A DNA stretch of 64,000 nucleotides from assembly GCA_965214975.1 (NCBI GenBank), contig OZ244055.1, positions 1,430,994-1,494,993 of the forward strand, given 5' to 3'. Below, one piece after another: positions 7,927 to 58,037 of the stretch. The notes under the pieces are model-generated. The model saw only the letters and a list, made by a program, of their open reading frames with translations. It did no database searches and was not told the origin of the DNA. Every line of letters starts with the position of its first letter. Position 1 is the stretch's first letter. A program made the translations under genes and the position numbers. The stretch is from Alphaproteobacteria bacterium. GTDB lineage: Bacteria > Pseudomonadota > Alphaproteobacteria > MPNO01 > UBA830.

Positions 7927-8000
7927 GCGGGTGTAGCTCAATGGCAGAGCAGGAGCTTCCCAAGCTCAAGATGAGGGTTCGATTCCCTTCACCCGCTCCA
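7927..8000 (+). tRNA. tRNA-Gly (anticodon CCC), 74 nt with encoded CCA
   Basis: Cloverleaf read by hand. Acceptor GCGGGTG/CACCCGC with discriminator T and CCA. D-arm GCTC-AATGGCA-GAGC. Anticodon loop TTCCCAA. T-arm GAGGG-TTCGATT-CCCTT. One G-A mismatch at the top of the anticodon stem. Confidence 0.85.
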
Positions 8001-8275
8001 GCATGCTCACCTCCGCGCCGGACGCCGTTCGCGATCCCGGGACCGTCGCGCGGACGGCGGTGTTTCCTCCCCGCGCCAACCGCAAGACCGGCTTTGGCCA
8101 CGCCATGCGTTGACGCGCGGCAGGGCAGACCGGCTGCATGGACTCCTGAGCCAGCCGGCGGTCCGGCGAGCGCACCCGGCAACGGCGGGTCGCTGAGAAG
8201 CCCGGCGAGCCCACCGCGGACAAGGGCCGCCAGCCGCTTCTCGCTCCTGTCGGCGGCCTTCGGTGGGGTTCGCGG

Positions 8276-8593
8276 TCAAACCGGGACTTCGATGCACACC
8301 CCCGCCTCCGCCTGATCGAAGGTAGCGCGAATACGCTCCACATGTTGTCGAATACGCGGCCAAGATGCGGCGAGCAGTACAATGACCGCGAATTGTCTGC
8401 CGTCCAGATTCTGCTGGTAGCGAAGGTTCCGGTCTGTGGTGACCAAGAGTTCATAACCTTCCGCGTCGGCGCGATCGAGCAGCTCGCCGTTGCGTAGTTC
8501 CGACCATCCCCGTTCGAAGGCGGTGTCCACCACATGACCAGGCAAATGCCGGCGCAGAGGGGCGGGCACGCCTTGATCGAACAGAATCTTCAA
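8276..8593 (-). CDS. DUF5615-type (PIN-like / Mut7-C-like) putative toxin, ~105 aa, TTG start overlapping the upstream stop
   Basis: Small protein directly downstream of, and overlapping (TTGA), a DUF433 gene. This pairing is typical of DUF433/DUF5615 toxin-antitoxin-like modules. GC is lower than the core. Confidence 0.5.
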   Translation of the reverse strand: MKILFDQGVPAPLRRHLPGHVVDTAFERGWSELRNGELLDRADAEGYELLVTTDRNLRYQQNLDGRQFAVIVLLAASWPRIRQHVERIRATFDQAEAGVCIEVPV

Positions 8594-8814
8594 GAAGCAT
8601 GCTCCATCAGCCCTCGAGTCTCGTGGTCGAAAACGCTTTCGATATGCCAGCGTTCGACGCCAGGAAACCATTCCAGAAACTGTTCGATCGTGGCCCCGTC
8701 CCTAAGGTTCTCGAACAGCGCGGCGACGGGCACGCGAGTACCGCGAAAGACCCAGACGCCGCTGACCTTGCCGGGATCGCTTTCCACGGCAGGGCAGGTG
8801 GTCCATGAAATCAT
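8590..8814 (-). CDS. DUF433 domain protein (74 aa), putative antitoxin-like partner
   Basis: 74-aa ORF with an ATG start. Sits immediately upstream of the small DUF5615-like ORF in a TA-like arrangement. Confidence 0.5.
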   Translation of the reverse strand: MISWTTCPAVESDPGKVSGVWVFRGTRVPVAALFENLRDGATIEQFLEWFPGVERWHIESVFDHETRGLMEHAS

Positions 8815-8835
8815 GAGTTCATCTCCCTCCGGAAA

Positions 8836-9330
8836 TCAGACCTTCATTGACCAGCCCGGTCGGCGCTCGACTGGTCGGGCTCCGTTGGCAATGCGGAGGC
8901 CGCCTCCCGCAAGTCGGATTCGCCGGTTACCGCCTCGGCGATCAGGTGCATGATCCCGAGGGCGGAGGCTGTGTAGCGCCTTCCGAAACCTGCGTACAAT
9001 TAGTCCCTTCGCCCACAACGCACATCGGCCAACCTCTTCAACTTCGCGTACAAGCAAATCTCCTCGCCGAACCGTATAGCGTTTACGTTCGGTCGGAAGA
9101 ACATCCATCTTGGGAAAGTCGTCGACGTTGATCCGATCCCACTGGATCTCAATATCCCTAAGGCAAGGAAGCAAGTGCGCGCCTGCGATCCGATCGATGC
9201 CGAGCATCTTGCCAAGACCCTGAGAGCACCCGCAATGAAGGAGGGTGACCTTCCAATGCGACGGTACCGGTCCTAGCCACATGACTCCAGAATCCTTCAT
9301 CGACGGGTGGGGCTTGAGAGCATCGATCAA
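8836..9330 (-). pseudogene. Possible type I restriction HsdS target-recognition-domain fragment (164-aa ORF, TTG start overlapping the DUF1524 stop)
   Basis: GVMWLGPVPSHWKVTLL and RKRYTVRRGDLLVREVEEVG resemble the LPEGWEW..LG opening and GDIL..G block of HsdS TRDs, but the ORF is too short for a full HsdS. Lowest-GC stretch of the window (~50%). Confidence 0.3.
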
Positions 9331-9911
9331 GACTCAGCTTCCTGCGCCAATCGCTCAGGGCTCCAAATCTGCCCGGCGAGCTGCTGGTACAGGTTCTGGC
9401 GTGCGTTCAGGTCATCCTTATGGAACTGGGAATGTGCCTTGAAGGGCAGCGCACTCCTACGCACGAACTGATCGAAGCCGGGATCACGCTTATAGGCGTC
9501 CTCATGGAGGCTCTGAGCCAGCAGGTTCTGTTTGAGATAATGCTTGCGTTTGTCAACGTAGGGGATGGCGCCATAACTGGCATTGAAGCTCTTGGGCACA
9601 AGCAGCAGACCCCCGATTCGGTTGCGGTATTCGGAAAAGTCCGCGGAATGCGAAAAATCTTCGGTGTGACGCTCAGGGTGATCGGCCCAAATGTGTTCGA
9701 TCTCGAATCTCTTCTTTCCGTGCCGCTGTACGTACTCGTGATAACGCGAGGCACGTCCTGAACGCGTCTCAACATAGTCCGTCATCCGAGCAAGCAGGCG
9801 GTGGACTTGCCGTCTATTGGTGCCGTGTAGCTGGAATCGATCGTTTGTGATGAAGGTTTCGCTTTCTGCCGCAAGGCGCTCTCCGAGCATCTCAACAAGG
9901 GGCCGGCGCAT
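9327..9911 (-). CDS. DUF1524 (GmrD-like His-Me finger nuclease) protein; ATG 9911 (alternative GTG 9977)
   Basis: KKRFEIEHIWADHPERH ... NRIGGLLLVPKSFNASYG is the DUF1524 signature. The N-terminus overlaps the 3' end of the DUF262 gene in another frame. Confidence 0.6.
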   Translation of the reverse strand: MRRPLVEMLGERLAAESETFITNDRFQLHGTNRRQVHRLLARMTDYVETRSGRASRYHEYVQRHGKKRFEIEHIWADHPERHTEDFSHSADFSEYRNRIGGLLLVPKSFNASYGAIPYVDKRKHYLKQNLLAQSLHEDAYKRDPGFDQFVRRSALPFKAHSQFHKDDLNARQNLYQQLAGQIWSPERLAQEAES

Positions 9912-11178
9912 CTTTGCCCCGAATATCGCGCATGACCAGAAACATGGCGTACTGCATGGTCGAGTAGCCGATAGCACGGAAATTCCAAATTCGTCGCGTA
10001 ATCAAGATGTCGAGATACGCTGCTACAATACGCAGCTTTCGCAGAAGATCCCGCTCACCGTCGTCGCGTCGCAAGGGTGCCAGGAGAACAGGGTATTGCA
10101 ATGTAAAGTTATTCTGGGCGCAATAATGGATCGCCTCTAAACCATCCGTTAGAGTCTCTGCTGCTTGACGTAGACGTGAATACCAATGGCCATAGAAGCA
10201 AAAGTCCTCTTCAATGAAGCGGGCGAAGTCGTTCCCCGATGACAGTCCAAGTGGTTCTTGGTTGTCGCGGACCCAGCGATGAAATTCGGTGCCTATGAGG
10301 TCGAAATCTCGCGGTTTGCCACCTCGCTTTCGCTCGCGGATGCTTTTCGCGTGCTGGCTGCGTAGCCACCCCTTGATGGCGTCAGCGATGGCGTCAGTTT
10401 CCTCCTCCTTCCCAAGATCTTGCAGACTGCTCACGTGCTTGCGCCAAAGTCGATTTGCCTTATTGCGACGCTCGCCATCGTCAATATGCGCCAAGAGATA
10501 TCCCTTGAGCATGTCGGCGGGCGTAAGCGAGAGTCCTCGGTCGTTCATAGTCTCAAAGATGGTGTAGGCGTCCGCGTCCGAATAGGCGGTGATTTCGACC
10601 AGGTAGACATTCTCGATTAGCCAATCCGAGAAATAGGGAAGAGCATCATTGACAAGATCTTCGGGAAAGTGCTCCTCAACATCCTCGAACCGCCGGAAAA
10701 TGTTGGTGACCGACTCGGACTGTCCTGCTGCTTCTATATCTGTCATATCCGCTTTGAACAGCGCGTCCATGCACACTGACCGCTCGTCGACATCAATGTT
10801 GAAAGAGCGCTGACCGAATCTTTGCGAGTAAATCAGGTCAGAAAGTTGGTGCCTCTCTTGATCATCATCGATTTGTCGATATATATAAATAAGAAGGAGT
10901 GTGAGGGTTGTTAGTCTCTGCTGGCCATCAATTATGAATTTTTGCCCCTCTTTATCGCTGATGATGATGGACCCCAAGAAGTAATGGCCGTAATCCTGAA
11001 CGCCCTTGCGGGAATCGCCAGGTTTGTAGCTATCCCGAAATTTTTCCGTGAGATCACCTATCAGCTCTGCAACTTGCTTGGTCTGCCAGCGGTATTCGCG
11101 TTGATAGTAGTCGATGGCGTATTTGGCACCGCCGAGCAGTGAACGCAGGTTCTTTGTATCGCCACGAATCTCTTTCAC
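9892..11178 (-). CDS. DUF262 (GmrS-like, ParB-nuclease-fold) protein, ~428 aa, GTG start with AGGGGAAG SD
   Basis: Hallmark IIDGQQRLTTL motif. N-terminal YAIDYYQREYRWQ (DUF262 opening). GTG 11178 is preceded at 8 nt by AGGGGAAG. Low-GC codon usage. Confidence 0.7.
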   Translation of the reverse strand: MKEIRGDTKNLRSLLGGAKYAIDYYQREYRWQTKQVAELIGDLTEKFRDSYKPGDSRKGVQDYGHYFLGSIIISDKEGQKFIIDGQQRLTTLTLLLIYIYRQIDDDQERHQLSDLIYSQRFGQRSFNIDVDERSVCMDALFKADMTDIEAAGQSESVTNIFRRFEDVEEHFPEDLVNDALPYFSDWLIENVYLVEITAYSDADAYTIFETMNDRGLSLTPADMLKGYLLAHIDDGERRNKANRLWRKHVSSLQDLGKEEETDAIADAIKGWLRSQHAKSIRERKRGGKPRDFDLIGTEFHRWVRDNQEPLGLSSGNDFARFIEEDFCFYGHWYSRLRQAAETLTDGLEAIHYCAQNNFTLQYPVLLAPLRRDDGERDLLRKLRIVAAYLDILITRRIWNFRAIGYSTMQYAMFLVMRDIRGKDAPAPC

Positions 11179-11428
11179 GGTCTGCTTCCCCTGTGATGTC
11201 GCCGAGCAACCCCTCGGTCTTCTTCTCAAGCGCCAGGATGTCGGCGCGAATCTCCTCCAGCGTCCGTATGGGCTGGAGCTCGTTGAAGTAGCGGTTGAGG
11301 AAGCCTCTCCCGTCGGTAAGCCGCGCGCAGAGCGTGGCCGGAACAGTCGATCAGCCCGTCCGTGGTCAAGACGCGCGTGCAGACCGTGTTCTCGATCCGC
11401 AACCTGCCTTCCGTCGCGCCGTCTCCGG

Positions 11429-43970: not shown

Positions 43971-44685
43971 CATCTACGGATCGCGCAGCAGGATCGGCCT
44001 CATCGTCCCCGCCAACAACTCGGTGATCGAGCCCGAGCTCTGGTCCCGCGCGCCGACAGGCGTCTCGATCCACGCAACCCGCGTCCTCGCCCGCGGCGAG
44101 CTGACTCCCGACGCGATCAGGAAGATGGAGAGTTCGGTCGACCGGGCGGTCGAGGAACTCGCCGCGACCGGCGTGAACGTGATCGTCTACGCCGACATGG
44201 TCACCAGCTTCGTCATGGACCCCGGCTGGAACGAGAGACGGACAGGCGCCATAGCGGAGGCGGCCGGCGTGCCCTGCCTGTCCGCCTGGACGGCCATGCG
44301 ATCCTCGCTCGACGCCCTCGGGGTCTCGCGCCTGGTTCTCGGGACGCCGTACCCTTCCGGACTTCATGCGCTCGCGCCGCCGTTCTTCGCCGCCAACGGA
44401 TACGAGATCATTGATCACAAAACTCTTGACATCAGGATGATGCATGACGTTCCCAAAATTGAAAGAGAGCGTCTGGAGGATCTCGTTGGCAGCCTCGATG
44501 CCGATGGCGCCGAGGCCGCGGTCCTCCTCGCGACGGACTTGCCGACGTTCGAGGCGTTCGAGGCCCTCGAGGATCTGCTAGACCTGCCGGTGCTCTCGTC
44601 GAACCAGGCCATCCTGCGGACGGCGTTGCGCCGGACAGGGGTCGGGGATCCTCTCTTCGGGCTCGGAAAGCTCGGCAGCCTGTGA
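43897..44685 (+). CDS. Asp/Glu/hydantoin racemase superfamily protein (maleate-isomerase / hydantoin-racemase-like). Only a GTG at 43897 is in frame, which would overlap the upstream gene by 74 nt.
   Basis: IGLIVPANNSVIEPE N-terminal motif and a second-half Cys region are typical of this superfamily. No ATG/GTG/TTG occurs in frame after the upstream stop at 43970. Confidence 0.6.
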   Translation: MTASSCRNGRADASPAAARADGRGDIYGSRSRIGLIVPANNSVIEPELWSRAPTGVSIHATRVLARGELTPDAIRKMESSVDRAVEELAATGVNVIVYADMVTSFVMDPGWNERRTGAIAEAAGVPCLSAWTAMRSSLDALGVSRLVLGTPYPSGLHALAPPFFAANGYEIIDHKTLDIRMMHDVPKIERERLEDLVGSLDADGAEAAVLLATDLPTFEAFEALEDLLDLPVLSSNQAILRTALRRTGVGDPLFGLGKLGSL

Positions 44686-44714
44686 CGCCGCCGTCCGGGC
44701 GGTTCCGCCGGCGT

Positions 44715-45938
44715 TCAGGACGCCGCGGCGATCCGCTCGACGGCGGCCGCGAGAACGCGGCAGCCGGTGACGATGTCCTCTTCGGAGGTGTCTTCCGCCT
44801 CGCTGTGGCTCTTTCCGCGGATGCTCGGAATGAACAGCATCGCGGCAGGCAGGCGGCGGGCGACGATCATGGCGTCGTGCCCCGCCCCGCTCGGCATCTC
44901 CATGACGCCGACGCCGCAGTCCCCGGCGGCCGCCCGGATCCGCGCCGTCAGCGTCCGGTCCATCTCGGTCGGCGCCACGTCCAGGGCCTTCGTGGCCTCG
45001 CAGAGAAGGCCCGTCCGCTTCCCGATCGCTTCAAGGCAGTTGCGCGCCGCCGCTTCCATGGCGTCGAGCACCGACGCCGAGAGATCGCGGAACTCGAGCG
45101 AGAACAGCGCTTTCGCGGGCACCACGTTCTCGGCGCCCGGCTCGAAGCGGATCGTCCCGATGTTCCACACGCTGCCGCCGCCTCCGGCCTCCTTCATCGC
45201 GTCGTAGAGCGCCCCCGCGCAGCGGACCGCCGCCTGCCCGGCGTCCTTGCGCATGTCCATCGGCACCGTGCCGGCGTGATCCGCCTCGCCCACGATCTCG
45301 ACGCGGAGCCTCCTGATGCCCACGAGTCCCGTCACCACGCCGATCCCGACCCTCGCCGCCTCGAGCCGCGGTCCCTGCTCGATGTGGGCTTCCAGATACG
45401 CGAGGTGACGGCCGGGATCGGCAACGACCGCCGGATTGCCGCGATATCCGCATCGTCCGATCGCCTCGGCCAGAGGTTCGCCGTCGAGTCCGCTGGCCGA
45501 GGCGATCCGGTCCTCTCCGAGCTGCTCGACGAAACTCAGGCTTCCGAGGCAGGGCAGGTAGGTTCCCTCCTCGTCCATGAACGAGACCGCCTCGACCGCG
45601 ATCCCGGATCCCGCCTCCACGGCGCAACGCGCAATCTCCAGCCCGTAGATGACGCCTAGGGAGCCGTCGAGCCAGCCGCCCACGGGCACCGAATCCGAAT
45701 GCGAGCCGATGACCAGCGCGCGGCCTTCGCCGGGAGTGCGGCCGAAGACGTTACCCACGTTGTCGACCACGGTCTCGAGGCCGGCTTCCGCCATACGCTC
45801 TCTCAGCCAGGCCCGGGCGCGGGTATCGGCCTCCGAATAGGAAACACGGCCGACACCGGTGGTCAGCTTGCCGAACTCCGCCAGGGCGTGGAGGTCGTCG
45901 AGCAGCCGCCGGCCGTCGACGCGCAGGGAATCCGTCAT
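44715..45938 (-). CDS. N-carbamoyl-L-amino-acid amidohydrolase / allantoate amidohydrolase (M20 Zn-peptidase family), 407 aa
   Basis: M20 metal ligands (GSHSDSV, ..D.., EEG, H at the C-terminus) and the AmaB/HyuC-type dimerisation-domain layout. ATG 45938 confirmed. Confidence 0.8.
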   Translation of the reverse strand: MTDSLRVDGRRLLDDLHALAEFGKLTTGVGRVSYSEADTRARAWLRERMAEAGLETVVDNVGNVFGRTPGEGRALVIGSHSDSVPVGGWLDGSLGVIYGLEIARCAVEAGSGIAVEAVSFMDEEGTYLPCLGSLSFVEQLGEDRIASASGLDGEPLAEAIGRCGYRGNPAVVADPGRHLAYLEAHIEQGPRLEAARVGIGVVTGLVGIRRLRVEIVGEADHAGTVPMDMRKDAGQAAVRCAGALYDAMKEAGGGGSVWNIGTIRFEPGAENVVPAKALFSLEFRDLSASVLDAMEAAARNCLEAIGKRTGLLCEATKALDVAPTEMDRTLTARIRAAAGDCGVGVMEMPSGAGHDAMIVARRLPAAMLFIPSIRGKSHSEAEDTSEEDIVTGCRVLAAAVERIAAAS

Positions 45939-46153
45939 GGTCGCACCCGGAACCGCAGTGATCGCCCGAGAAGGTTCCCGCCATCCTAACGCCTGTCCGG
46001 CAAGACGGATAGGGTCGTTTCCCGAGCGCTTCGACCCACGCTCCGACCCGGGCTTCCCGCGCTCGGCCGCGTGACCGGCGGCGGAGACCGCTTCGGGGTT
46101 CGTCAGGACGTCCGGGACGCCTGTGTCCGCCGGCAGGATCTCTTTCGAGACGC

Positions 46154-47940
46154 CCCGAGCGTCCGGAGCGCCTTGAATCCGTTGCGGTCGCCACTAGAAT
46201 GGCCCCGCGCCACGCTCGGCGTGCGCGCCCGGGAGTGCCGGTGGCGGCCGACCTTGGGGACGAGGCGTTTCCGGCATGCCCGCATGGGACGGGCAGGCGT
46301 CCGGCAGGGAAAGCCCGAGCCATGGACCGACGCAAGCTGCCGATCGGCATCCAGACCTTTCGCGAGATCCGCGAGGAAGGCCACTACTACGTCGACAAGA
46401 CCGGCTACGCGAAAAGGCTGGTCGACGAAGGCAAGCACCATTTCCTGTCGCGGCCGCGGCGGTTCGGCAAGAGCCTGTTCCTCGACACGCTGAAGGAGCT
46501 GTTCGAGGGCAGCGAGGCGCTGTTCGAGGGACTCGCCGTCCACGGCCAGTGGGACTGGTCGGTGCGCCATCCGGTCGTGCGTCTGAGCTTCGGCCGGGGC
46601 GATTTCGAGCAACCGGGCTTTCTCGAGCGGAACGTCGCCGCGCAGCTGGACGAAATCGAGGAAGGCGCGGGTCTGGCGGCCCGATACCCCGATGCGCCGG
46701 ACCGCCTCGCGCACCTGATCAGGACGCTTCACAGACAAGCGGGCCAAAGGGCGGTCTTCCTGGTGGACGAGTACGACAAGCCGGTTCTCGACGCCCTGGG
46801 GGATCCGGAACGGGCGCGCGCGAACCGCAACTATCTGCGCGGGCTCTACTCGACCCTCAAGGACAGCGACGCCCACATCGAGTTCAGCTTCATCACCGGG
46901 GTGAGCAAGTTCACCCGGACGAGCCTGTTCTCGGGCATGAACAACCTCAGGGACATCACCCTGGATCCGCGTCATTCGGCGATCTGCGGCTACACCGAGG
47001 CCGATCTGGACACGACGTTCGCGCCGGAACTCGAGGGGCTCGACCGCGCGGCGGTCCGCGAGTGGTACAACGGCTACTCGTGGCTCGGCGAGGACAGGGT
47101 CTACAATCCGTTCGGGATTCTGCAGCTGTTCGACAGACGGGAGTTCAGGGCGTGGTGGTTCGAGACCGGCACGCCGACCTTCCTGGTCGACTTGCTGAGG
47201 TCGCGCGACGTGTTTCCCGTGGATCTCGAGAACATGCCGGCAAGCGAGGAGCTCCTGTCGGCGTTCGACGTCGGCGACATCGCGCCCGAGGCGCTGCTGT
47301 TCCAGACCGGCTATCTCACGATCACGGGCACCGAGAAACGCGGCACGCGGATCCGCCACCGGCTCGGCTACCCGAACCGGGAGGTGCGGGAGAGCCTGAA
47401 CCGATGGCTGCTGCGCAGTCTGGCGCCGGTGTCCGCGGCCGAGGAGGAGGAGCGGAACGACCGGCTTTTCGATCTTCTGGAGAGCGCGGATCTTTCCGGC
47501 ATGGAGGCGCTGTTCCATTCGGTGCTCGCAAGCGTTCCCCACCAGTGGCACGCCGGGGCCGCCGTCACCAGGCACGAGGCCTGGTTCGCCAGCGTGTTCT
47601 ATTCGTACTTTCTGGGTTCCGGCCTCGACGCGCGGGCGGAGGACACGACGAACCGGGGACGGATCGACATGTCCGTGCTGACGGACAGGCATGTCTACCT
47701 GTTCGAGTTCAAGGTGCTGGGGTCCGCCGCCAGGGGCGGCGCGATGCGCCAGCTGCGCGAGAGGGGCTACGCGGAAAAGTACAGGAGCCGCGGTCTCCCG
47801 ATCCATCTCGTCGGAGTGGAGTTCGACCCCGGGAAACGCAACATCGCGACCTTCGAGACCGCGCGGGCGTGAGTCCCGGGAACGGCTCCCGGCGACGCCC
47901 GGCGTCCCGTCCCTTTCGCGCTCCTGACCCGCATCTTCCG
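46154..47940. repeat. Direct repeat copy 1 (~1.79 kb), ~98% identical to 49361..51147 except for a ~140-nt divergent patch (46626..46765)
   Basis: Aligned by eye; a constant offset of 3207 nt holds from the leader (cccgagcgtccggagcgcc...) through the 3' flank (...gacccgcatcttccg). Confidence 0.85.
46322..47872 (+). CDS. AAA-ATPase-like (PF09820-type) + C-terminal PD-(D/E)xK nuclease-like (PDDEXK_9 / DUF1703-type) protein, 516 aa, copy 1
   Basis: N-terminal FLSRPRRFGKSLFLDT (P-loop-like GKS), VDEYDKP (Walker-B-like) and a C-terminal D...E.K block (RIDMSVLTDRHVYLFEFKV). ATG 46322 confirmed by codon count. Confidence 0.7.
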   Translation: MDRRKLPIGIQTFREIREEGHYYVDKTGYAKRLVDEGKHHFLSRPRRFGKSLFLDTLKELFEGSEALFEGLAVHGQWDWSVRHPVVRLSFGRGDFEQPGFLERNVAAQLDEIEEGAGLAARYPDAPDRLAHLIRTLHRQAGQRAVFLVDEYDKPVLDALGDPERARANRNYLRGLYSTLKDSDAHIEFSFITGVSKFTRTSLFSGMNNLRDITLDPRHSAICGYTEADLDTTFAPELEGLDRAAVREWYNGYSWLGEDRVYNPFGILQLFDRREFRAWWFETGTPTFLVDLLRSRDVFPVDLENMPASEELLSAFDVGDIAPEALLFQTGYLTITGTEKRGTRIRHRLGYPNREVRESLNRWLLRSLAPVSAAEEEERNDRLFDLLESADLSGMEALFHSVLASVPHQWHAGAAVTRHEAWFASVFYSYFLGSGLDARAEDTTNRGRIDMSVLTDRHVYLFEFKVLGSAARGGAMRQLRERGYAEKYRSRGLPIHLVGVEFDPGKRNIATFETARA

Positions 47941-48131
47941 CAGGAACTTTCGGCGGTCCAGCCGATCCAGGCATCCTGGCACACGGTCCTGAAGGCGCCG
48001 GACTGCCGCCCCGCAAGCGCGACCCACTCCCCGCGCCATGCGACGATGTAGCGCGGCCCGCGTCCGGCGAGGAACTCGACGGAATCGAGGACTTCCGGCG
48101 CAGCCGGGGGCGCAAGCACCGGATCGCGACC

Positions 48132-49172
48132 GTGCTCGCGATCCATCTTCTCGCGCGGCTCTCGAATATGCGCGGGCCGGTCGCCGCCGCCGAGTACGCG
48201 GGCACGCTGTCGCAGCGGGAGCTGGAAGCGCTCGGCGCCTGGAAAGACCCGAAGACCGGCCGCTTCGTGCCGGTCCCGGAGTCGACCCTGCACCGGGTCG
48301 TCACCTCCGTCGACCCCGAGCGGTTCGAGGCGGCGCTACAGCGCTTCGCGATGGCGCGGCTGAACCTCGGCCGCGCGATCGCGGTCGACGGCAAGCGCAT
48401 CCGCGGCGCGAACCGCAACGGCGCGGACCACCACGAGACCGCGACCCTGGTCGACCACGCGACCCGCGCGCCGCTCGCAAGCCTCGCCTTCAACGAGGAG
48501 GGCGGCGAGGTCGCCGCCGTGCACGCGCCGCTCGAGCGGGTTCCCGTCGACGGCCGCGTGATCACCCTCGACGCGCTCCACACAACCCGCAAAACCGCCC
48601 GCCTCGTCAAGGACACCCACGGCGCCGACTATCTCATGACGGTCAAGGGAAACGCTCCCGAGACCCGGGAGATCCTCTCCTCCATCGACTGGGAAGACGA
48701 CGGGCACGGCCACTTCACCGAAGACATCGACAAGGTCCACGGACGCAGCGGGCAACGCCGCATCACGACCCTGACCCCGCACCCGCGCCTGATCAACTAT
48801 CCCCACGTCGACCGGATCTTCCGGGTCACCCGCGAGCGCACCGACGCGCGCCGCAACGGCACCGGAGAGACCGCCGGCGGGCACGCCTACGGCATCACCT
48901 CCGCGCCGGCGGAGCGCGCCTCCCCGCAGGATCTTCTCGCCTGGAACCGTGGACACTGGGCGGTCGAGGCCCACCACCACGTCCGGGACACGGTCTTCGG
49001 CGAGGACACGTGCCTCGCGCGAACCGGCTTCGCGCCCGAGAACAACGCGACCGCCACCAGCCTCGCGCTCGCGGTCATCATCCACAGGACCGGCTCCGCC
49101 GGCATCGCCTCGGCAACCCGGCGCTTCGCGCTCCGGCGCAGGGACGCCTTCGCCGCGATCCTGTCCCCCTGA
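48132..49172 (+). mobile_element. ISAs1-family transposase, apparently 5'-truncated (346-aa ORF from GTG 48132; the frame stays open upstream to the repeat junction with no start codon)
   Basis: AIAVDGKRIRG...ETATLVDHA...ITLDALHTTRKTARLVKDTHGADYLMTVKGN matches the ISAs1 (H-repeat) DDE core. The upstream in-frame peptide IEDFRRSRGRKHRIATVLAIHLLARL matches the DDE_Tnp_1_assoc N-terminal region but has no ATG/GTG/TTG. Confidence 0.65.
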
Positions 49173-49360
49173 ACGCCGCGGCGCGCCGCCGCAACGCCGC
49201 CGGTCCGCCGGCATCGACCTCCGGCACCTCCGGACCCGAATCCCGCCCCGGAAGAAGGCCGCGAACCCGCGAAACGGGCCGTCGCGCGCCGGCCGCAACG
49301 CCCGGACGCGGCCCGGACCGACCGCAATCGGCCGCAATCGGGGAGCGTGGGATAGTCCTG

Positions 49361-51147
49361 CCCGAGCGTCCGGAGCGCCTTGAATCCGTTGCCGTCGCCA
49401 CTAGAATGGCCCCGCGCCACGCTCGGCGTGCGCGCCCGGGAGTGCCGGTGGCGGCCGACCTTGGGGACGAGGCGTTTCCGGCATGCCCGCATGGGACGGG
49501 CAGGCGTCCGGCAGGGAAAGCCCGAGCCATGGACCGACGCAAGCTGCCGATCGGCATCCAGACCTTTCGCGAGATCCGCGAGGAAGGCCACTACTACGTC
49601 GACAAGACCGGCTACGCGAAAAGGCTGGTCGACGAAGGCAAGCACCATTTCCTGTCGCGGCCGCGGCGGTTTGGCAAGAGCCTGTTCCTCGACACGCTGA
49701 AGGAGCTGTTCGAGGGCAGCGAGGCTCTGTTCGAGGGACTCGCCGTCCACGGCCAGTGGGACTGGTCGGTGCGTCATCCGGTCGTGCGTCTGAGCTTCGG
49801 CCGCGGCGATTTCGAGCAACCGGGCTTTCTCGACCGCAACATCGCGACCCAGCTCGATGCCGTTGAAAGGCGATCGGACCTGAAGTCCGGATATTCCGAT
49901 GCATCCGAGCGTTTCGCCTACCTGCTCGAGGCGCTTCACGAGCGGACGGGACAGAGGGTCGTCGTGCTGGTGGACGAGTACGACAAGCCGGTTCTCGACG
50001 CCCTGGGGGATCCGGAACGGGCGCGCGCGAACCGCAACTATCTGCGCGGGCTCTACTCGACCCTCAAGGACAGCGACGCCCACATCGCGTTCAGCTTCAT
50101 CACCGGGGTGAGCAAGTTCACCCGGACGAGCCTGTTCTCGGGCATGAACAACCTCAGGGACATCACGCTCGATTCGCGCTACTCCGCGATCTGCGGCTAC
50201 ACCGAGGCCGATCTGGACACGACGTTCGCGCCGGAACTCGAGGGGCTCGACCGCGCGACGGTCCGCGAGTGGTACAACGGCTACTCGTGGCTCGGCGAGG
50301 ACAGGGTCTACAACCCGTTCGGGATTCTGCAGCTGTTCGACAGACGGGAGTTCAGGGCGTGGTGGTTCGAGACCGGCACGCCGACCTTCCTGGTCGACTT
50401 GCTGAGATCGCGCGACGTGTTTCCCGTGGATCTCGAGAACATGCCGGCAAGCGAGGAACTCCTGTCGGCGTTCGACGTCGGCGACATCGCGCCCGAGGCG
50501 CTGCTGTTCCAGACCGGCTATCTCACGATCACGGGCACGGACAGACGCGGCACGCGGATCCGCCACCGGCTCGGCTACCCGAACCGGGAGGTGCGGGAGA
50601 GCCTGAACCGATGGCTGCTGCGCAGTCTGGCGCCGGTGTCCGCGACCGAGGAGGAGGAACGGAACGACCGGCTTTTCGATCTTCTGGAGAGCGCGGATCT
50701 TTCCGGCATGGAGGCGCTGTTCCATTCGGTGCTCGCAAGCGTTCCCCACCAGTGGCACGCCGGGGCCGCCGTCACCAGGCACGAGGCCTGGTTCGCCAGC
50801 GTGTTCTATTCGTACTTTCTGGGTTCCGGCCTCGACGCGCGGGCGGAGGACACGACGAACCGGGGACGGATCGACATGTCCGTGCTGACGGACAGGCACG
50901 TCTACCTGTTCGAGTTCAAGGTGCTGGGGTCCGCCGCCAGGGGCGGCGCGATGCGCCAGCTGCGCGAGAGGGGCTACGCGGAAAAGTACAGGAGCCGCGG
51001 TCTCCCGATCCATCTCGTCGGAGTGGAGTTCGACCCCGGGAAACGCAACATCGCGACCTTCGAGACCGCGCGGGCGTGAGTCCCGGGAACGGCTCCCGGC
51101 GACGCCCGGCGTCCCGTCCCTTTCGCGCTCCTGACCCGCATCTTCCG
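49361..51147. repeat. Direct repeat copy 2 (~1.79 kb); divergent patch at ~49833..49972, which is lower in GC than the rest
   Basis: See copy 1. This copy's patch encodes DRNIATQLDAVERRSDLKSGYSDASERFAYLLEALHERTGQRVVV, against ERNVAAQLDEIEEGAGLAARYPDAPDRLAHLIRTLHRQAGQRAVF in copy 1. Confidence 0.85.
49529..51079 (+). CDS. AAA-ATPase-like + PD-(D/E)xK (DUF1703-type) protein, 516 aa, copy 2
   Basis: Same length and motifs as copy 1. Differs at ~35 residues clustered in aa ~103-148, plus a few scattered substitutions. Confidence 0.7.
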   Translation: MDRRKLPIGIQTFREIREEGHYYVDKTGYAKRLVDEGKHHFLSRPRRFGKSLFLDTLKELFEGSEALFEGLAVHGQWDWSVRHPVVRLSFGRGDFEQPGFLDRNIATQLDAVERRSDLKSGYSDASERFAYLLEALHERTGQRVVVLVDEYDKPVLDALGDPERARANRNYLRGLYSTLKDSDAHIAFSFITGVSKFTRTSLFSGMNNLRDITLDSRYSAICGYTEADLDTTFAPELEGLDRATVREWYNGYSWLGEDRVYNPFGILQLFDRREFRAWWFETGTPTFLVDLLRSRDVFPVDLENMPASEELLSAFDVGDIAPEALLFQTGYLTITGTDRRGTRIRHRLGYPNREVRESLNRWLLRSLAPVSATEEEERNDRLFDLLESADLSGMEALFHSVLASVPHQWHAGAAVTRHEAWFASVFYSYFLGSGLDARAEDTTNRGRIDMSVLTDRHVYLFEFKVLGSAARGGAMRQLRERGYAEKYRSRGLPIHLVGVEFDPGKRNIATFETARA

Positions 51148-51392
51148 TTCGTCACGCCACCCGGAAGGCGTTGCGGGCGGCCGTTGCATCGGATCTTGCG
51201 GGGGCCTGTCGGGCGGAGCGGCCGGGCCGGCGCCCGGTTTCGGCTCCCGACAGTCCCGTCCCGAGCGCCCCGAACGGACGGCGGCATTCGTCACCCGTCG
51301 CGCGAGAGTGTATCCTGTACGGTGGATTCGCCGCCTCTGCGGGAGCCGTCGCGCGGTTCGTGAATCCTGCCTCCTCCCGGAACCTGGCGAAG

Positions 51393-52223
51393 ATGTCACC
51401 CCAACCGCCCTGGACGGATGACGAGAACGACCTGCTCGTCGCGGACCACTTCGCGATGCTGGCCGACGAGCTCGCCGGACGGAAATTCAGCAAGGCCGGA
51501 CATCGGCGAGAGCTGCAAGAGCGCCTCAGAAGACGTACAGAACCTTCCATCGAGTTCAAGCACCGCAACGTCAGCGCCGTGCTCCAGGGGCTCGGCGAGG
51601 ACTGGATCCGCGGCTACAGGCCCGCCGCCAACTTCCAGGCGACGCTGATCGACGCCGTGGAGAGATGGCTGGCACGCAATCCCGGGTGGCTCGGTCGCCC
51701 GCCGCGGCCTCTTCCCGTCGGCGGCACCGCCCCGCTCCTGTTCGGACACGCCCCGACACTCGGCAACCGGCCGCCGCCGAAGGGGCTCGACCGGACGCTG
51801 GAGGTCGCGCTGAGATTCGACGTGCCGGCCCGGGACGAACGCAACCGCGAGCTGGGTCGCGCCGGCGAGGAACGGGTGCTGCTACACGAACGGGCCGAAC
51901 TGGACCGGGCGGGACGACGCGACCTCGCCGAGCGGGTGCGGTGGGTGTCCGTCGAGGACGGCGACGGCGCCGGCTTCGACATCGAGAGTTTCACGGAGGA
52001 CGGACGGGCGCGCCTGATCGAGGTGAAGACGACCAACGGCTGGGAGCGCACGCCCTTCCACATCACGAGCAACGAGCTGGCCGTCGCCGACAGGCGGCCG
52101 GGAGAGTGGCTCCTGACCAGAGTGTGGAACTTTTCCCGGGAACCGCGCGCGTTCGACCTGAGGCCGCCTCTCGAGACGCACGTGTCCCTGACGCCGACGA
52201 CCTTCCGGGCGGAGTTCGGATGA
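51393..52223 (+). CDS. DUF3883 domain protein (restriction-endonuclease-like PD-(D/E)xK fold), 276 aa
   Basis: C-terminal GRAGEERV...GFDIESF...RLIEVKTT...FHITSNE...YLLTRVW matches the DUF3883 (NO VEIN C-terminal) pattern with a D...E.K catalytic-like triad. The N-terminal ~150 aa are unassigned. Confidence 0.55.
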   Translation: MSPQPPWTDDENDLLVADHFAMLADELAGRKFSKAGHRRELQERLRRRTEPSIEFKHRNVSAVLQGLGEDWIRGYRPAANFQATLIDAVERWLARNPGWLGRPPRPLPVGGTAPLLFGHAPTLGNRPPPKGLDRTLEVALRFDVPARDERNRELGRAGEERVLLHERAELDRAGRRDLAERVRWVSVEDGDGAGFDIESFTEDGRARLIEVKTTNGWERTPFHITSNELAVADRRPGEWLLTRVWNFSREPRAFDLRPPLETHVSLTPTTFRAEFG

Positions 52224-52292
52224 GCCGGCTCCGCCGCGTTTCCGCCCGACGAAGCCCCCTCTCCGCCGCCCGCGGTTCCGGCGGCGTCCCGG

Positions 52293-53309
52293 TCAGGCGC
52301 CGAACGTGAAACGGCTTCCGAGATTGGAGCCGACCAGACGGTCGGGCATGCGACGCCTCATGGACTCGATGAAACCCTGCCCCGTGCAGTGCATCGGGAT
52401 GACGACGTCGGGGCCGAGCGCCTCGAGCTCGTCGACCGTGTGCTCGATGTAGCCGGGCCTGGAGGTCGTCAGGTGGAACCCTCCCACGACCGCGTGAAGC
52501 CGGTCGGTGCCGGCCACCTGCATCGCGCTCTTCACCGAATTGACGATTCCCGCATGCCCGCAGGACGAGATCACGACCAGCCCCTTGCCGCGCACGAGAT
52601 AGCAGGTCGCGTGCTCCTCCGGATGGCTGTCGTGCACCAGCTCGCCGCGCCGCTCGGCTTCGGAGAAATGGTCCGGAACCTCGAGCATCGATCCGCCCGT
52701 GACCTCCTCGAACGAATCGCGCGCGATGTAGCCCGTGGTGAACGCCCCGTCGAGCGCCTGCGGCTCGTGGCAGCACGTCGGCGTCACCGCCTGCGCCGTG
52801 AGCGCGGTGCGGTCGGGAGCGCCCCAGCACACCATCTCCGGCTCGGCGCCGGGGCGGGGCACGGCCCGGACCCAGCGGACGTGGAACGCTTCCTCGGCGC
52901 CGACGAACAGCTGGAGATCCTCGCGCATCCCGACGCGGTGCCGCTCGACGAAACCGTGCAGGCCGCCGTAGTGGTCGCGGTGGCCGTGGCTCAGGATGAG
53001 CCCGTTGAGCCGTCCGGGATCGACGTCGAGCAGGTCGAAATTGCGGTTCAGGATCTCCGGCGTGTAGCCGAAGTCCAGCAGATACCCAGCCCTGTCGCCG
53101 CGGGACGACGATTCGAGGTGCAGGGACAGCCCCCATTCCCCAGCGAGCGTGCTCATCTGCCGGCCGGGAATGGCGCCCACGTGCTCGATGGCGACATGCG
53201 GATGGGCGGCTTTCGGCAGAAACCGCTCGTAATGGGAATCGACCACCACCCGGATCGACAGGCGGTCGACCACGGGCGCGGCGAACGGCGACTGGCGGCG
53301 CGCGCTCAT
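52293..53309 (-). CDS. MBL-fold metallo-hydrolase, 338 aa
   Basis: HxHxDH motif ILSHGHRDHYGG, plus downstream His/Asp ligands (SCGHAG, MHCTG). Confidence 0.75.
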   Translation of the reverse strand: MSARRQSPFAAPVVDRLSIRVVVDSHYERFLPKAAHPHVAIEHVGAIPGRQMSTLAGEWGLSLHLESSSRGDRAGYLLDFGYTPEILNRNFDLLDVDPGRLNGLILSHGHRDHYGGLHGFVERHRVGMREDLQLFVGAEEAFHVRWVRAVPRPGAEPEMVCWGAPDRTALTAQAVTPTCCHEPQALDGAFTTGYIARDSFEEVTGGSMLEVPDHFSEAERRGELVHDSHPEEHATCYLVRGKGLVVISSCGHAGIVNSVKSAMQVAGTDRLHAVVGGFHLTTSRPGYIEHTVDELEALGPDVVIPMHCTGQGFIESMRRRMPDRLVGSNLGSRFTFGA

Positions 53310-53370
53310 CGCGTCCCCGCCTCCCTTCGCGCCGGGCGGATCCCGCGGCGGCTCGACGGCCCGACGCCCG

Positions 53371-54549
53371 TCAAACCACGCCGTCCCTGCGCAGGGCCGC
53401 GATCTCGTCGGCGCCGCGGCCGAGTTCGGAGAGGAGGTCGTCCGTGTGCTCGCCGAGAAGCGGCGCCGGCTCCAGACGCTGGTCGTCCCGCGCCCCGTCG
53501 TACCAGACCGCCCGGCGGGCGAAGCGCTGGCGGCCCTTTTCCGGCCGCTCGACCTCGGCGAACGTGCCGAGATGGCCGACCTGGGGATCCTCCAGGACGT
53601 CTTCGAGGGAATTGATGGGCGCGTAGGGCACGTCGTTGGCCTCCAGCCGTTCTGCCCAATGCGCGCGCGGGCGCGTCGCCGCCGCCGCCTTGAACTCCGC
53701 GTCGAGTTCGAGATAGTGCTCGGTTCTCAGCATGCGTTCGCGGAAACGGGCGTCCTCGCGCAGGCGCTCGAGGCCGAAAGCGGCGGTGACGCCGAGCCAG
53801 AACTTCTCGGGCGACGAAAGGTGCACCGCGAGGAGCCTGCCGTCCTGGCAGGCCATCCCGTAGGACTGCGAGGCGCTGACGCGGGCCAGCGGCCCCGGCC
53901 TGGTTCCCTGCAGGATCATGTTGGCGAACGGGTCCGGAACGAACCCGATCGCGCTTTCGAGCATGTTCACGTCGACGCGCCTCGGCGGCCCCCCGCGCTC
54001 GCGCTCGAACAGGGCGCCGAGAATCCCGTAGCAGGCGTTGATCCCCGTCACGTTGTCCGCGATCGTCGGGCCCGTGATCCGCGGCTCCTCGGGATCGACG
54101 AACAGGCCGGTGATGCCGGACAGCGACTGCGCCACCGCGTCGTAGGCCGGACGGCGGTCGTAGGGGCCGTCCTTGCCGAAACCCGTGATCGAGCAGTAGA
54201 TCAGCCGCGGGTTCCGCGCCCTCAGGGCGTCGAGGGAAAGCCCGAGACGGTCCATCACCCCGGGACGGAAGTTCTCGACCAGCACGTCGGCGCGTTCCGC
54301 CAGCTCGAGGACGATCTCCCGCCCCTCCCCGCGCTGGAGGTCGAGAGTAATCGAGCGCTTGTTGCGGTTGTAGGCGGTGAACTGGGCCGAATAGGTGCCG
54401 CCGCGCCACGAGCGGAACATGTCGCCGCCGTCGCGCCTCTCGACCTTGACGACGCCGGCGCCGAGATCGCCCAGCATCTGGCCGCACAGCGACCCGGTGA
54501 TCATGGTCGTCAGCTCGAGGACGTGCACCCCTTCGAGAGGCCCCGGCAC
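53371..54549 (-). CDS. CoA-transferase family III (CaiB/BaiF) protein, 392 aa, GTG start
   Basis: GPLEGVHVLELT N-terminus and the NRNKRS and CSITGFGKDGP blocks. SD AAGGGG at 7 nt before GTG 54549, 11 nt after the upstream oxygenase stop. Confidence 0.8.
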   Translation of the reverse strand: MPGPLEGVHVLELTTMITGSLCGQMLGDLGAGVVKVERRDGGDMFRSWRGGTYSAQFTAYNRNKRSITLDLQRGEGREIVLELAERADVLVENFRPGVMDRLGLSLDALRARNPRLIYCSITGFGKDGPYDRRPAYDAVAQSLSGITGLFVDPEEPRITGPTIADNVTGINACYGILGALFERERGGPPRRVDVNMLESAIGFVPDPFANMILQGTRPGPLARVSASQSYGMACQDGRLLAVHLSSPEKFWLGVTAAFGLERLREDARFRERMLRTEHYLELDAEFKAAAATRPRAHWAERLEANDVPYAPINSLEDVLEDPQVGHLGTFAEVERPEKGRQRFARRAVWYDGARDDQRLEPAPLLGEHTDDLLSELGRGADEIAALRRDGVV

Positions 54550-57377: not shown

Positions 57378-58037
57378 CGACGGCCATGGAACGCGGTGGC
57401 GGCGCCCGTCACGCGCCGCCGCCCCGGCGCGAGCGCCGGCCCGACGGCCGGTCCGGCACGTGACGGAATCCCGGACGGGGACGACGCGACGACGCGTCCG
57501 CGCCGCCTTCGGTCAGGACGGCGAAGCTGTTCCCGGCGAGCGCCCCCGGAAATCACGCCGACGCGGTCTCGAACGCCGCGGCGTTGCGCTTCCCGGAATC
57601 GAACCCGGCTCCGGCGCAACGGATCCGCGGGCCGCGTTCCCGGCAATTTGCCGCATGGCTCCTCTGGCGCGGCTTCCTCATCGCGTCGCCCTCTCCGGCA
57701 GGCCCCGGCACCTTGAACCCGGACGGCGACGCGCGCCGCCCCCGGTCCGTCGCGTCCTCCACCCGCGCGTCGAGACCCGACCCGATGCGGGCATGCCGGA
57801 AGCGCGCCGCCCGGCGGCGGCCACCGCAAGCGCCAGCGTGTCAGGCGCGACGCCCGCCATCGTAGCAGAACGCCGGATCGCGGCGCGGCGCGGTTGCGCG
57901 GCAACCCTCCGCCGGAGACCGGGAACCCGGCGCGCGGACAAGCCGGAACGCGAGCGACCGCGACGGGCCGGTCCGGGGCGTCGCGGATGCGCCGGTTCCG
58001 GCGACGGCCCGGCGAACGCGGCGCCGTTGCCGACCGC

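Follow-up and report, generated by a model that had tools for sequence, protein, structure and literature searches.

A 64,000-nucleotide window of an alphaproteobacterial genome (contig OZ244055.1, positions 1,430,994 to 1,494,993) contains two long, near-identical direct repeats, each carrying one gene of the DUF1703 type (A1 and A2) and separated by the remains of an insertion sequence (IS) of the ISAs1 family. The locus probably arose, in an order of events that we infer, from a tandem gene pair into which the IS inserted between the genes and then decayed, with short tracts of the genes being replaced by gene conversion.

In a repeat search and base-by-base comparison, 46154–47940 and 49361–51147 emerge as 1,787-bp direct repeats that keep an offset of 3207 throughout and have 74 mismatches; identity just outside either repeat end is 23–42%, the random level. 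A preliminary description of the locus, made from the letters alone, had recognised two near-identical direct repeats at a 3207-nt offset, and its coordinates and description hold. It had also placed most of the difference between the copies in one block of lower G+C content in copy 2, which the comparison bears out: 51 of the 74 mismatches fall within 133 nt (46627–46759; 61.7% identity), where the G+C content drops from 0.69 in copy 1 to 0.62 in copy 2, and the other 1,654 nt contain 23 mismatches (98.6% identity). When identity is plotted along the alignment the mismatches are clustered and not evenly spread (binomial P = 4e-40 for a fixed window), and besides this patch there are two mini-clusters, at 46960–46978 (seven mismatches) and at 47332–47337 (three).

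Each repeat would correspond to a whole transcription unit, because a promoter-like site lies inside the left boundary and the repeat ends 68 nt past the stop codon. The layout consists of the promoter-like site, a leader of ~120 nt, an open reading frame (ORF) of 516 codons and a 68-nt trailer. A consensus scan finds two such sites, each 19 nt inside the left boundary of its repeat, where 0.2 are expected. An in-frame ATG at 46199 would give an ORF of 557 amino acids (aa) and overlaps the −10-like hexamer (window 46199–46321); the N-terminal extension is not conserved in P0127, the sole paralog with a long N-terminus. On both grounds the 516-aa start at 46322 is the more likely one. This start leaves the ~120-nt leader, and homologs of other genomes have no such leader; Rfam has no match in the leader or near the locus.

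The preliminary description had listed AAA-ATPase and PD-(D/E)xK genes. Both domains are present, not as separate genes but within the single 516-aa ORF of each repeat. PF09820 scores 201.2 and 207.6 bits in the two copies (cutoff 26.1), covering the whole profile (1–201), and PF08011 scores 71.6 bits (cutoff 25.5) in the same ORF. Among 64 homologs, K50 of Walker A (GKS, residues 49–51) and D149 and E150 of Walker B (LVDEYD, residues 147–152) are invariant, as are the nuclease residues D449, E462 and K464, and the catalytic residues of both ATPase and nuclease are intact in A1 and A2 alike. The patch recodes, as first described, about 45 residues between the P-loop and Walker B (codons 102–146), and A1 and A2 differ at 25 positions across residues 91–146. 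Mapped on an AlphaFold2 model (mean predicted local distance difference test score 82, predicted template modelling score 0.81), the patch forms a helix-loop-helix that lies between the two Walker motifs, comprising helices 100–115 and 125–140 with their connecting loop, directly before the Walker B strand (144–149). Foldseek agreement is weak, solved structures give no sequence-level match to the protein, no PADLOC model matches either gene copy at E ≤ 0.01, and NCBIfam has no match for the protein. Judged by the model, the protein is a predicted STAND/ORC-like P-loop ATPase joined to a C-terminal PD-(D/E)XK nuclease. The working model, drawn from the fold alone, is that an ATP-driven switch ATPase would control the nuclease on the same chain.

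A1 belongs to a large family. A protein search returns more than 8,000 relatives at E ≤ 1e-20, with the top seven clusters all from the source contig (3,807,671 bp), and the 3.8-Mb source genome has at least 19 distinct full-length paralogs and one fragment, including A1 (P0001) and A2 (P0121); we infer that all of these lie on the one 3,807,671-bp contig. Eighteen close paralogs are 70–100% identical overall, with 94–100% identity across residues 1–90. Residues 91–146 come in an alpha type (that of A1), a beta type (that of A2) and a gamma type, residues 291–420 in two backbones with a mutual identity of 48–55%, and each of the three patch types is found on both backbones. No other segment of the protein varies as much as the patch segment, whether the genome or the wider family is considered. 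At the second divergent tract (residues 216–218) the PRH and SRY states of A1 and A2 are each also present among other paralogs. A permutation test of the pairwise homoplasy index (PHI) type on 188 informative protein sites gives an observed value of 0.297 compared with 0.593±0.011, and none of 1000 permutations is as low.

The preliminary description had proposed gene conversion or cassette exchange at the patch and had raised the matter of additional copies that could donate it. Both points find support in the three types reassorted over at least 19 paralogs and in the copy 2 version, which occurs unchanged in P0122 (at the protein level, A2 residues 91–146, including the beta patch, are 100% identical in P0122 and 95% identical in P0124 and P0128). 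Gene conversion is thus well supported as the probable source of the patch. Synonymous divergence (dS) between A1 and A2 is 1.22 in the patch and 0.045 elsewhere, and the ratio of nonsynonymous to synonymous divergence in the patch is 0.31; because of these values the patch appears to be old, selectively maintained and imported sequence, and not a burst of new mutation.

Two other origins of the patch have to be weighed against conversion. An artefact, in which misassembly or short-read polishing with reads of paralogs made the second copy or the patch, is very improbable. A set of at least 19 similar genes is a typical target of polishing errors, but the copies are too different, at 74 positions, to be an identical repeat that was collapsed or duplicated, the patch forms a whole in-frame cassette whose type recurs in several other paralogs, mosaicism extends to all 18 close paralogs, and the record is a single 3.8-Mb contig. 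Less probable still, to the point of being hardly credible, is programmed diversification, in which the patch would be the target of a diversity-generating retroelement or an invertase-driven shufflon. It would account for variation sharply confined to the most variable protein segment. However, the 51 patch substitutions show no adenine bias, there are no inverted repeats within 44000–53500, the window contains no third patch-like copy that might act as a template, and the patch types are discrete old alleles (dS 1.2); no reverse transcriptase or invertase is present among the neighbouring genes scanned, genes beyond those not having been checked for reverse transcriptase.

The 1,420 bp between the repeats are, on sequence grounds, a rearranged and apparently non-functional relic of a longer DUF4338-ISAs1 element. 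The transposase frame is open from 47928 to 49172 and its first ATG, GTG or TTG is the GTG at 48132; it matches the NCBIfam ISAs1 model (NF033564; 134.9 bits, cutoff 70), DDE_Tnp_1_assoc (44 bits) and DDE_Tnp_1 (37.4 bits). The closest full-length relatives found by protein search are ~597 aa long, with an N-terminal DUF4338/DruA domain (PF14236) followed by DDE_Tnp_1_assoc and DDE_Tnp_1. A full-length reference IS at locus L081 is 2,118 bp long, has inverted repeats of 17–19 bp (CAGGGCCATCCCACGCT and CAGGACTATCCCACGCTCC) and is flanked by a 10-bp target duplication (GAGGTCGCGG). Compared with this reference the whole window contains three pieces only: nt 793–1902 in forward orientation, nt 255–367 inverted (80.5% nt identity by blastn), and the last 19 nt, which form an intact right end (GGAGCGTGGGATAGTCCTG). 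The IS left end is absent from the whole window, transposase codons 1–51 and 92–230 are missing from the relic, and the inverted piece stops within ~8 nt of where copy 1 ends. The relic has no target-site duplication: its flanks, CATCTTCCG and CCCGAGCGTC, are different.

The preliminary description had taken the spacer for a start-less ISAs1 transposase. The family assignment stands, and so does the lack of a start codon before the GTG at 48132, but the gene is not merely start-less: it is part of a scrambled relic that has lost its left end. The frame that seemed to run straight into copy 1 as a readable N-terminal region is really the reverse strand of the inverted transposase piece, and the start codon is lacking because an inverted stretch of this same gene makes up the 120 nt beside copy 1. 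In high-GC DNA, a transposase that seems to have no start can be a rearranged relic, with the upstream frame provided by the reverse strand of its own inverted fragment. The CAGGA...TCCTG motifs that border the spacer might be taken for the two termini of an entire IS of 1,420 bp, but this reading is ruled out by the relatives of 597 aa and 2,118 bp and by the inverted fragment.

The window transposase ORF has four changes at 83 otherwise conserved positions. The relic ORFs of the genome carry 3–6 substitutions at these 83 positions (conservation of at least 94% among intact homologs), whereas the majority of intact homologs have 0–2; one relic ORF has lost a near-invariant glutamate (E279A). 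Three relic ORFs of the source genome (P0134, P0135 and P0136) are each 346 aa long with the same GTG start position, and are 89–90% identical in an alignment free of indels. This suggests that a truncated relic was copied as a passenger, perhaps with four type-I family genes, or that conversion has prevented the relics from drifting apart. The N-terminal DUF4338/DruA domain is shared by a large group of ISAs1-family transposases (~590–610 aa; L081:2898–5015, P0137–P0253), and a short form is without it (P0138, 372 aa). The DUF4338/DruA domain is otherwise known from Druantia DruA; a literature search found no paper that pairs DUF4338 with ISAs1.

The tandem-pair history would begin with an ordinary tandem duplication of a unit somewhat longer than 1,787 bp. 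A long DUF4338-fused ISAs1-family element would then have inserted between the genes, 19 nt upstream of the −35 box of copy 2, and decayed, with IS nt 255–792 becoming inverted and a deletion removing the IS left end, the remaining inverted segment and spacer DNA up to 47940. The left repeat boundary would be the IS insertion point, with the right end of the IS breaking into the sequence that precedes copy 2, and the right boundary would be the deletion end point, cutting the DNA downstream of copy 1. Because the insertion point and the later deletion define the boundaries, these call for no coincidence, and the IS need not lie at the duplication junction. Recent duplication and/or conversion would have kept A1 and A2 nearly identical, while short conversion tracts were imported from other family members, the main tract swapping a helix-loop-helix that exists in three anciently diverged types. 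Tandem duplication is a plausible origin of the pair. IS-mediated capture, the other origin offered in the preliminary description, finds no specific support, with one relic between the genes and not two flanking IS copies; the window contains no IS sequence to the left of 46154 or to the right of 51147.

Several observations weigh against this history. For the alpha patch of A1, the retrieved paralogs include no exact donor, the best being P0125 (89%). A2 differs from the dispersed copy P0122 only at residues 14 and 38 and is closer to it than to its neighbour A1, and therefore the A1/A2 pair may not be the most recent duplication. The three 346-aa relic ORFs together with the four type-I genes in the genome hint at co-copying of gene and relic, which the history leaves unexplained. 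The donor tracts are seen at the protein level only.

Two other histories of the repeats are conceivable. In the first, the IS might have caused the duplication by aberrant transposition, with its two ends joined to different sites on sister chromosomes, the IS left at the junction and decaying later. This would fit the position of the intact IS right end, which directly adjoins the first base of copy 2, the lack of a target-site duplication, and the fact that the copies are separated by IS-derived DNA only. This origin is nonetheless unlikely: the boundaries are explained by any IS insertion between the copies followed by deletion, the left IS end that would carry the diagnostic junction is lost, the family makes tandem arrays without an IS in other genomes, and no full-length copy of this IS from the source genome occurs among the best 120 protein matches. 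The stronger view that an IS at the unit junction must have caused the duplication was considered and withdrawn, as insertion and later deletion set the boundaries without coincidence.

In the second history, the 1,787-bp unit would itself be a discrete mobile or cassette-like element with fixed ends that either came to flank an older IS relic or inserted into it. Several features could be read in this way: the number of copies (at least 19 in 3.8 Mb), the extent of the unit (it starts a little before the promoter-like site and ends shortly after the stop codon), another, diverged remnant in the window with the same leader, homologs 85–86% identical at the nucleotide level across phyla, and the occurrence of the family on 67 plasmid records (where the annotation is only 'ATP-binding protein'). 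We consider it improbable, however, and more so than duplication by the IS. The unit is without terminal inverted repeats and without a target duplication, its ends rest on two full copies only, the cross-phylum homology (coding sequence and ~18 nt) is far shorter than the unit, and the presence and absence of the gene in Spirochaetia resembles unequal recombination between repeated spacers and not insertion. A filled and an empty site in the Spirochaetia loci had been examined as a case of insertion and were set aside, the gene copies there being flanked by repeated spacer pieces as expected of array recombination.

The tandem-pair history agrees in its first step with what is found at related loci, of which 80 were kept from a genome scan (metagenome-assembled genomes, MAGs, of many phyla, none of them the source genome; 59–66% identity). 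More than one match to the gene is present in 16 of the 80, mostly as adjacent full or partial copies. L072 (857–5533) has three copies 27 bp apart that are 100% and 92% identical, L079 (2398–8754) has four copies and L025 (2414–5545) two; these arrays are head-to-tail with identical short spacers (27–67 bp). Tandem amplification and mosaicism are general habits of the DUF1703-type family, since the members of these arrays range in identity from 67 to 100%. The transposase of the relic is present in none of the 80 loci.

Homologs in Pseudomonadales and Vicinamibacterales MAGs share 85–86% nucleotide identity (L009, L012, L011, L037, L044, L050 and L062; 3980–5560 in each). The homology is limited to the coding sequence and ~18 nt upstream, which contain CTGCTAGCATGCGGCC just before the ATG. 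Identity of this level, confined in this way, indicates that family genes have probably been transferred recently across phyla, and a −10-like box so near the start codon hints at a leaderless transcript. Several of the bin names resemble those of sponge-microbiome MAG sets. A metagenome scan with the conserved leader motif GCGYTTCCGGCATGCCCGCAT gave five chance matches and no family gene.

The coordinates of the features described above are collected in Table 1.

Table 1. Features of the A1/A2 locus and a related pseudogene, in window coordinates.
Feature	Coordinates	Strand	Basis
Direct repeat copy 1, predicted whole transcription unit of DUF1703-family gene A1	46154..47940	+	constant-offset identity
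Sigma-70-like promoter, TTGAAT-16-TAGAAT (putative; twin at 49380-49407)	46173..46200	+	consensus match only
A1 coding sequence, 516 aa (= P0001), PF09820 AAA-ATPase_like and PF08011 PDDEXK_9	46322..47872	+	
Mosaic patch copy 1, type alpha, codons 102-146	46627..46759	+	
Second short divergent tract, 7 mismatches, PRH vs SRY at residues 216-218	46960..46978	+	
Third short divergent tract, 3 mismatches, EK vs DR at residues 338-339	47332..47337	+	
Relic of ISAs1-family insertion sequence, DUF4338-fused type, 1,420 bp	47941..49360	+	
Inverted fragment of transposase DUF4338/DruA domain, codons 52-91 of P0137, 68% aa identity	47949..48068	-	tblastn, blastn
Transposase codons 231-597 and stop, 73% aa identity to P0137, gapless	48069..49172	+	tblastn (codons to 49169)
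Intact right terminal inverted repeat, 19/19 vs reference IS end, abuts copy 2	49342..49360	+	
Direct repeat copy 2, predicted whole transcription unit of gene A2	49361..51147	+	constant-offset identity
A2 coding sequence, 516 aa (= P0121)	49529..51079	+	
Mosaic patch copy 2, type beta	49834..49966	+	
Internally deleted pseudogene of DUF1703 family, leader fused to last ~86 codons, 74-85% nt identity to repeats	57545..57826	-	

The pseudogene at 57545–57826, whose leader holds the motif TTCCGGCATGCCCGCAT, is inverted and has an EamA transporter gene on one side and a DctM gene on the other. Immediately after copy 2, a rightwards transcribed gene (51171–52223) encodes a NOV_C domain protein and matches the PADLOC candidate PDC-S36 (E 6e-114). 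Elsewhere in the window, a tRNA-Gly(ccc) gene (7927–8000) is followed by a stretch of low G+C content (0.51–0.55, compared with about 0.70 elsewhere; region 7927–11300) containing a DUF5615 ORF (8276–8671) and a GmrSD-type restriction gene split into overlapping ORFs (N-terminal 9892–11229, C-terminal 9327–9977). This region resembles a small defence islet acquired next to a tRNA gene, with a GmrSD gene that is possibly frameshifted.

The nearest described parallel is in Cardinium hertigii cCpun, which has 25 DUF1703 paralogs with an average identity of 39%, some with signal peptides; intragenic recombination among them was detected by several methods, and no clear biological role has been assigned to them (Siozios et al. 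2019, PMC6387759). Both families combine a PF09820 ATPase with a PF08011 nuclease, recombination is statistically supported in both, and the 25 paralogs there compare with at least 19 here. The present family differs in that 18 paralogs are 70–100% identical, with a near-invariant N-terminus, three patch types and two C-terminal backbones, and in that the host is a high-GC bacterium (about 70%) and not an insect endosymbiont. The locus is a new and cleaner example of the recombining DUF1703 expansion already described in Cardinium; new here are the decayed IS between the genes and a sharply bounded cassette with three states.

Target duplications of 8–10 bp and ends of the CAGG-starting kind are typical of the ISAs1 family (ISfinder). 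The relic resembles that family in its matches to NF033564 and to DDE_Tnp_1_assoc/DDE_Tnp_1, and the reference copy has short CAGG-starting inverted repeats and a 10-bp target duplication. The parent element differs in being a long form (2.1 kb, 597 aa) with the N-terminal DUF4338/DruA domain, and unlike an intact ISAs1 element the window copy lacks the left end and a start codon and has part of its interior inverted. The resemblance of A1 and A2 to STAND/ORC-type switch ATPases (archaeal 2qen and 2fna; NLR, Avs) is one of possible working and not of membership, as both proteins are only 516 aa long, have no repeat-type sensor domain and carry their nuclease at the C-terminus.

The pilE/pilS genes of Neisseria and vlsE of Borrelia are multigene families diversified by segmental gene conversion. 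As in those systems, short tracts are copied between paralogs, conserved flanks surround a variable segment, and discrete variant cassettes are reused. The partners here differ, however, in appearing to be full-length genes, with a promoter-like site of their own in those seen at the DNA level; they are not silent cassettes that feed one expression site, and there is no sign of a dedicated mechanism or of rapid switching.

DUF1703-type proteins are very widespread, occurring on plasmids, in many phyla and in tandem arrays. The processes acting at this locus, namely tandem duplication, IS decay and gene conversion, are ordinary. A rather doubtful proposal is that the members of the family are combinatorially diversified STAND-like ATPase-nucleases, innate-immunity-like or self-propagating, in which the helix-loop-helix would serve as an exchangeable specificity cassette maintained in three types and the near-invariant N-terminal 90 codons as a recombination anchor; it is even conceivable that the nuclease of the family makes breaks whose repair left the conversion tracts. 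The genome constitutes an unusually clean natural experiment, in which 18 close paralogs with an almost fixed N-terminus, three discrete and anciently diverged helix-loop-helix versions beside the ATP site and two backbones have been reassorted. The pattern of reassortment points to the parts of the protein that likely carry specificity, and A1 and A2 provide a pair of ready-made chimeras.

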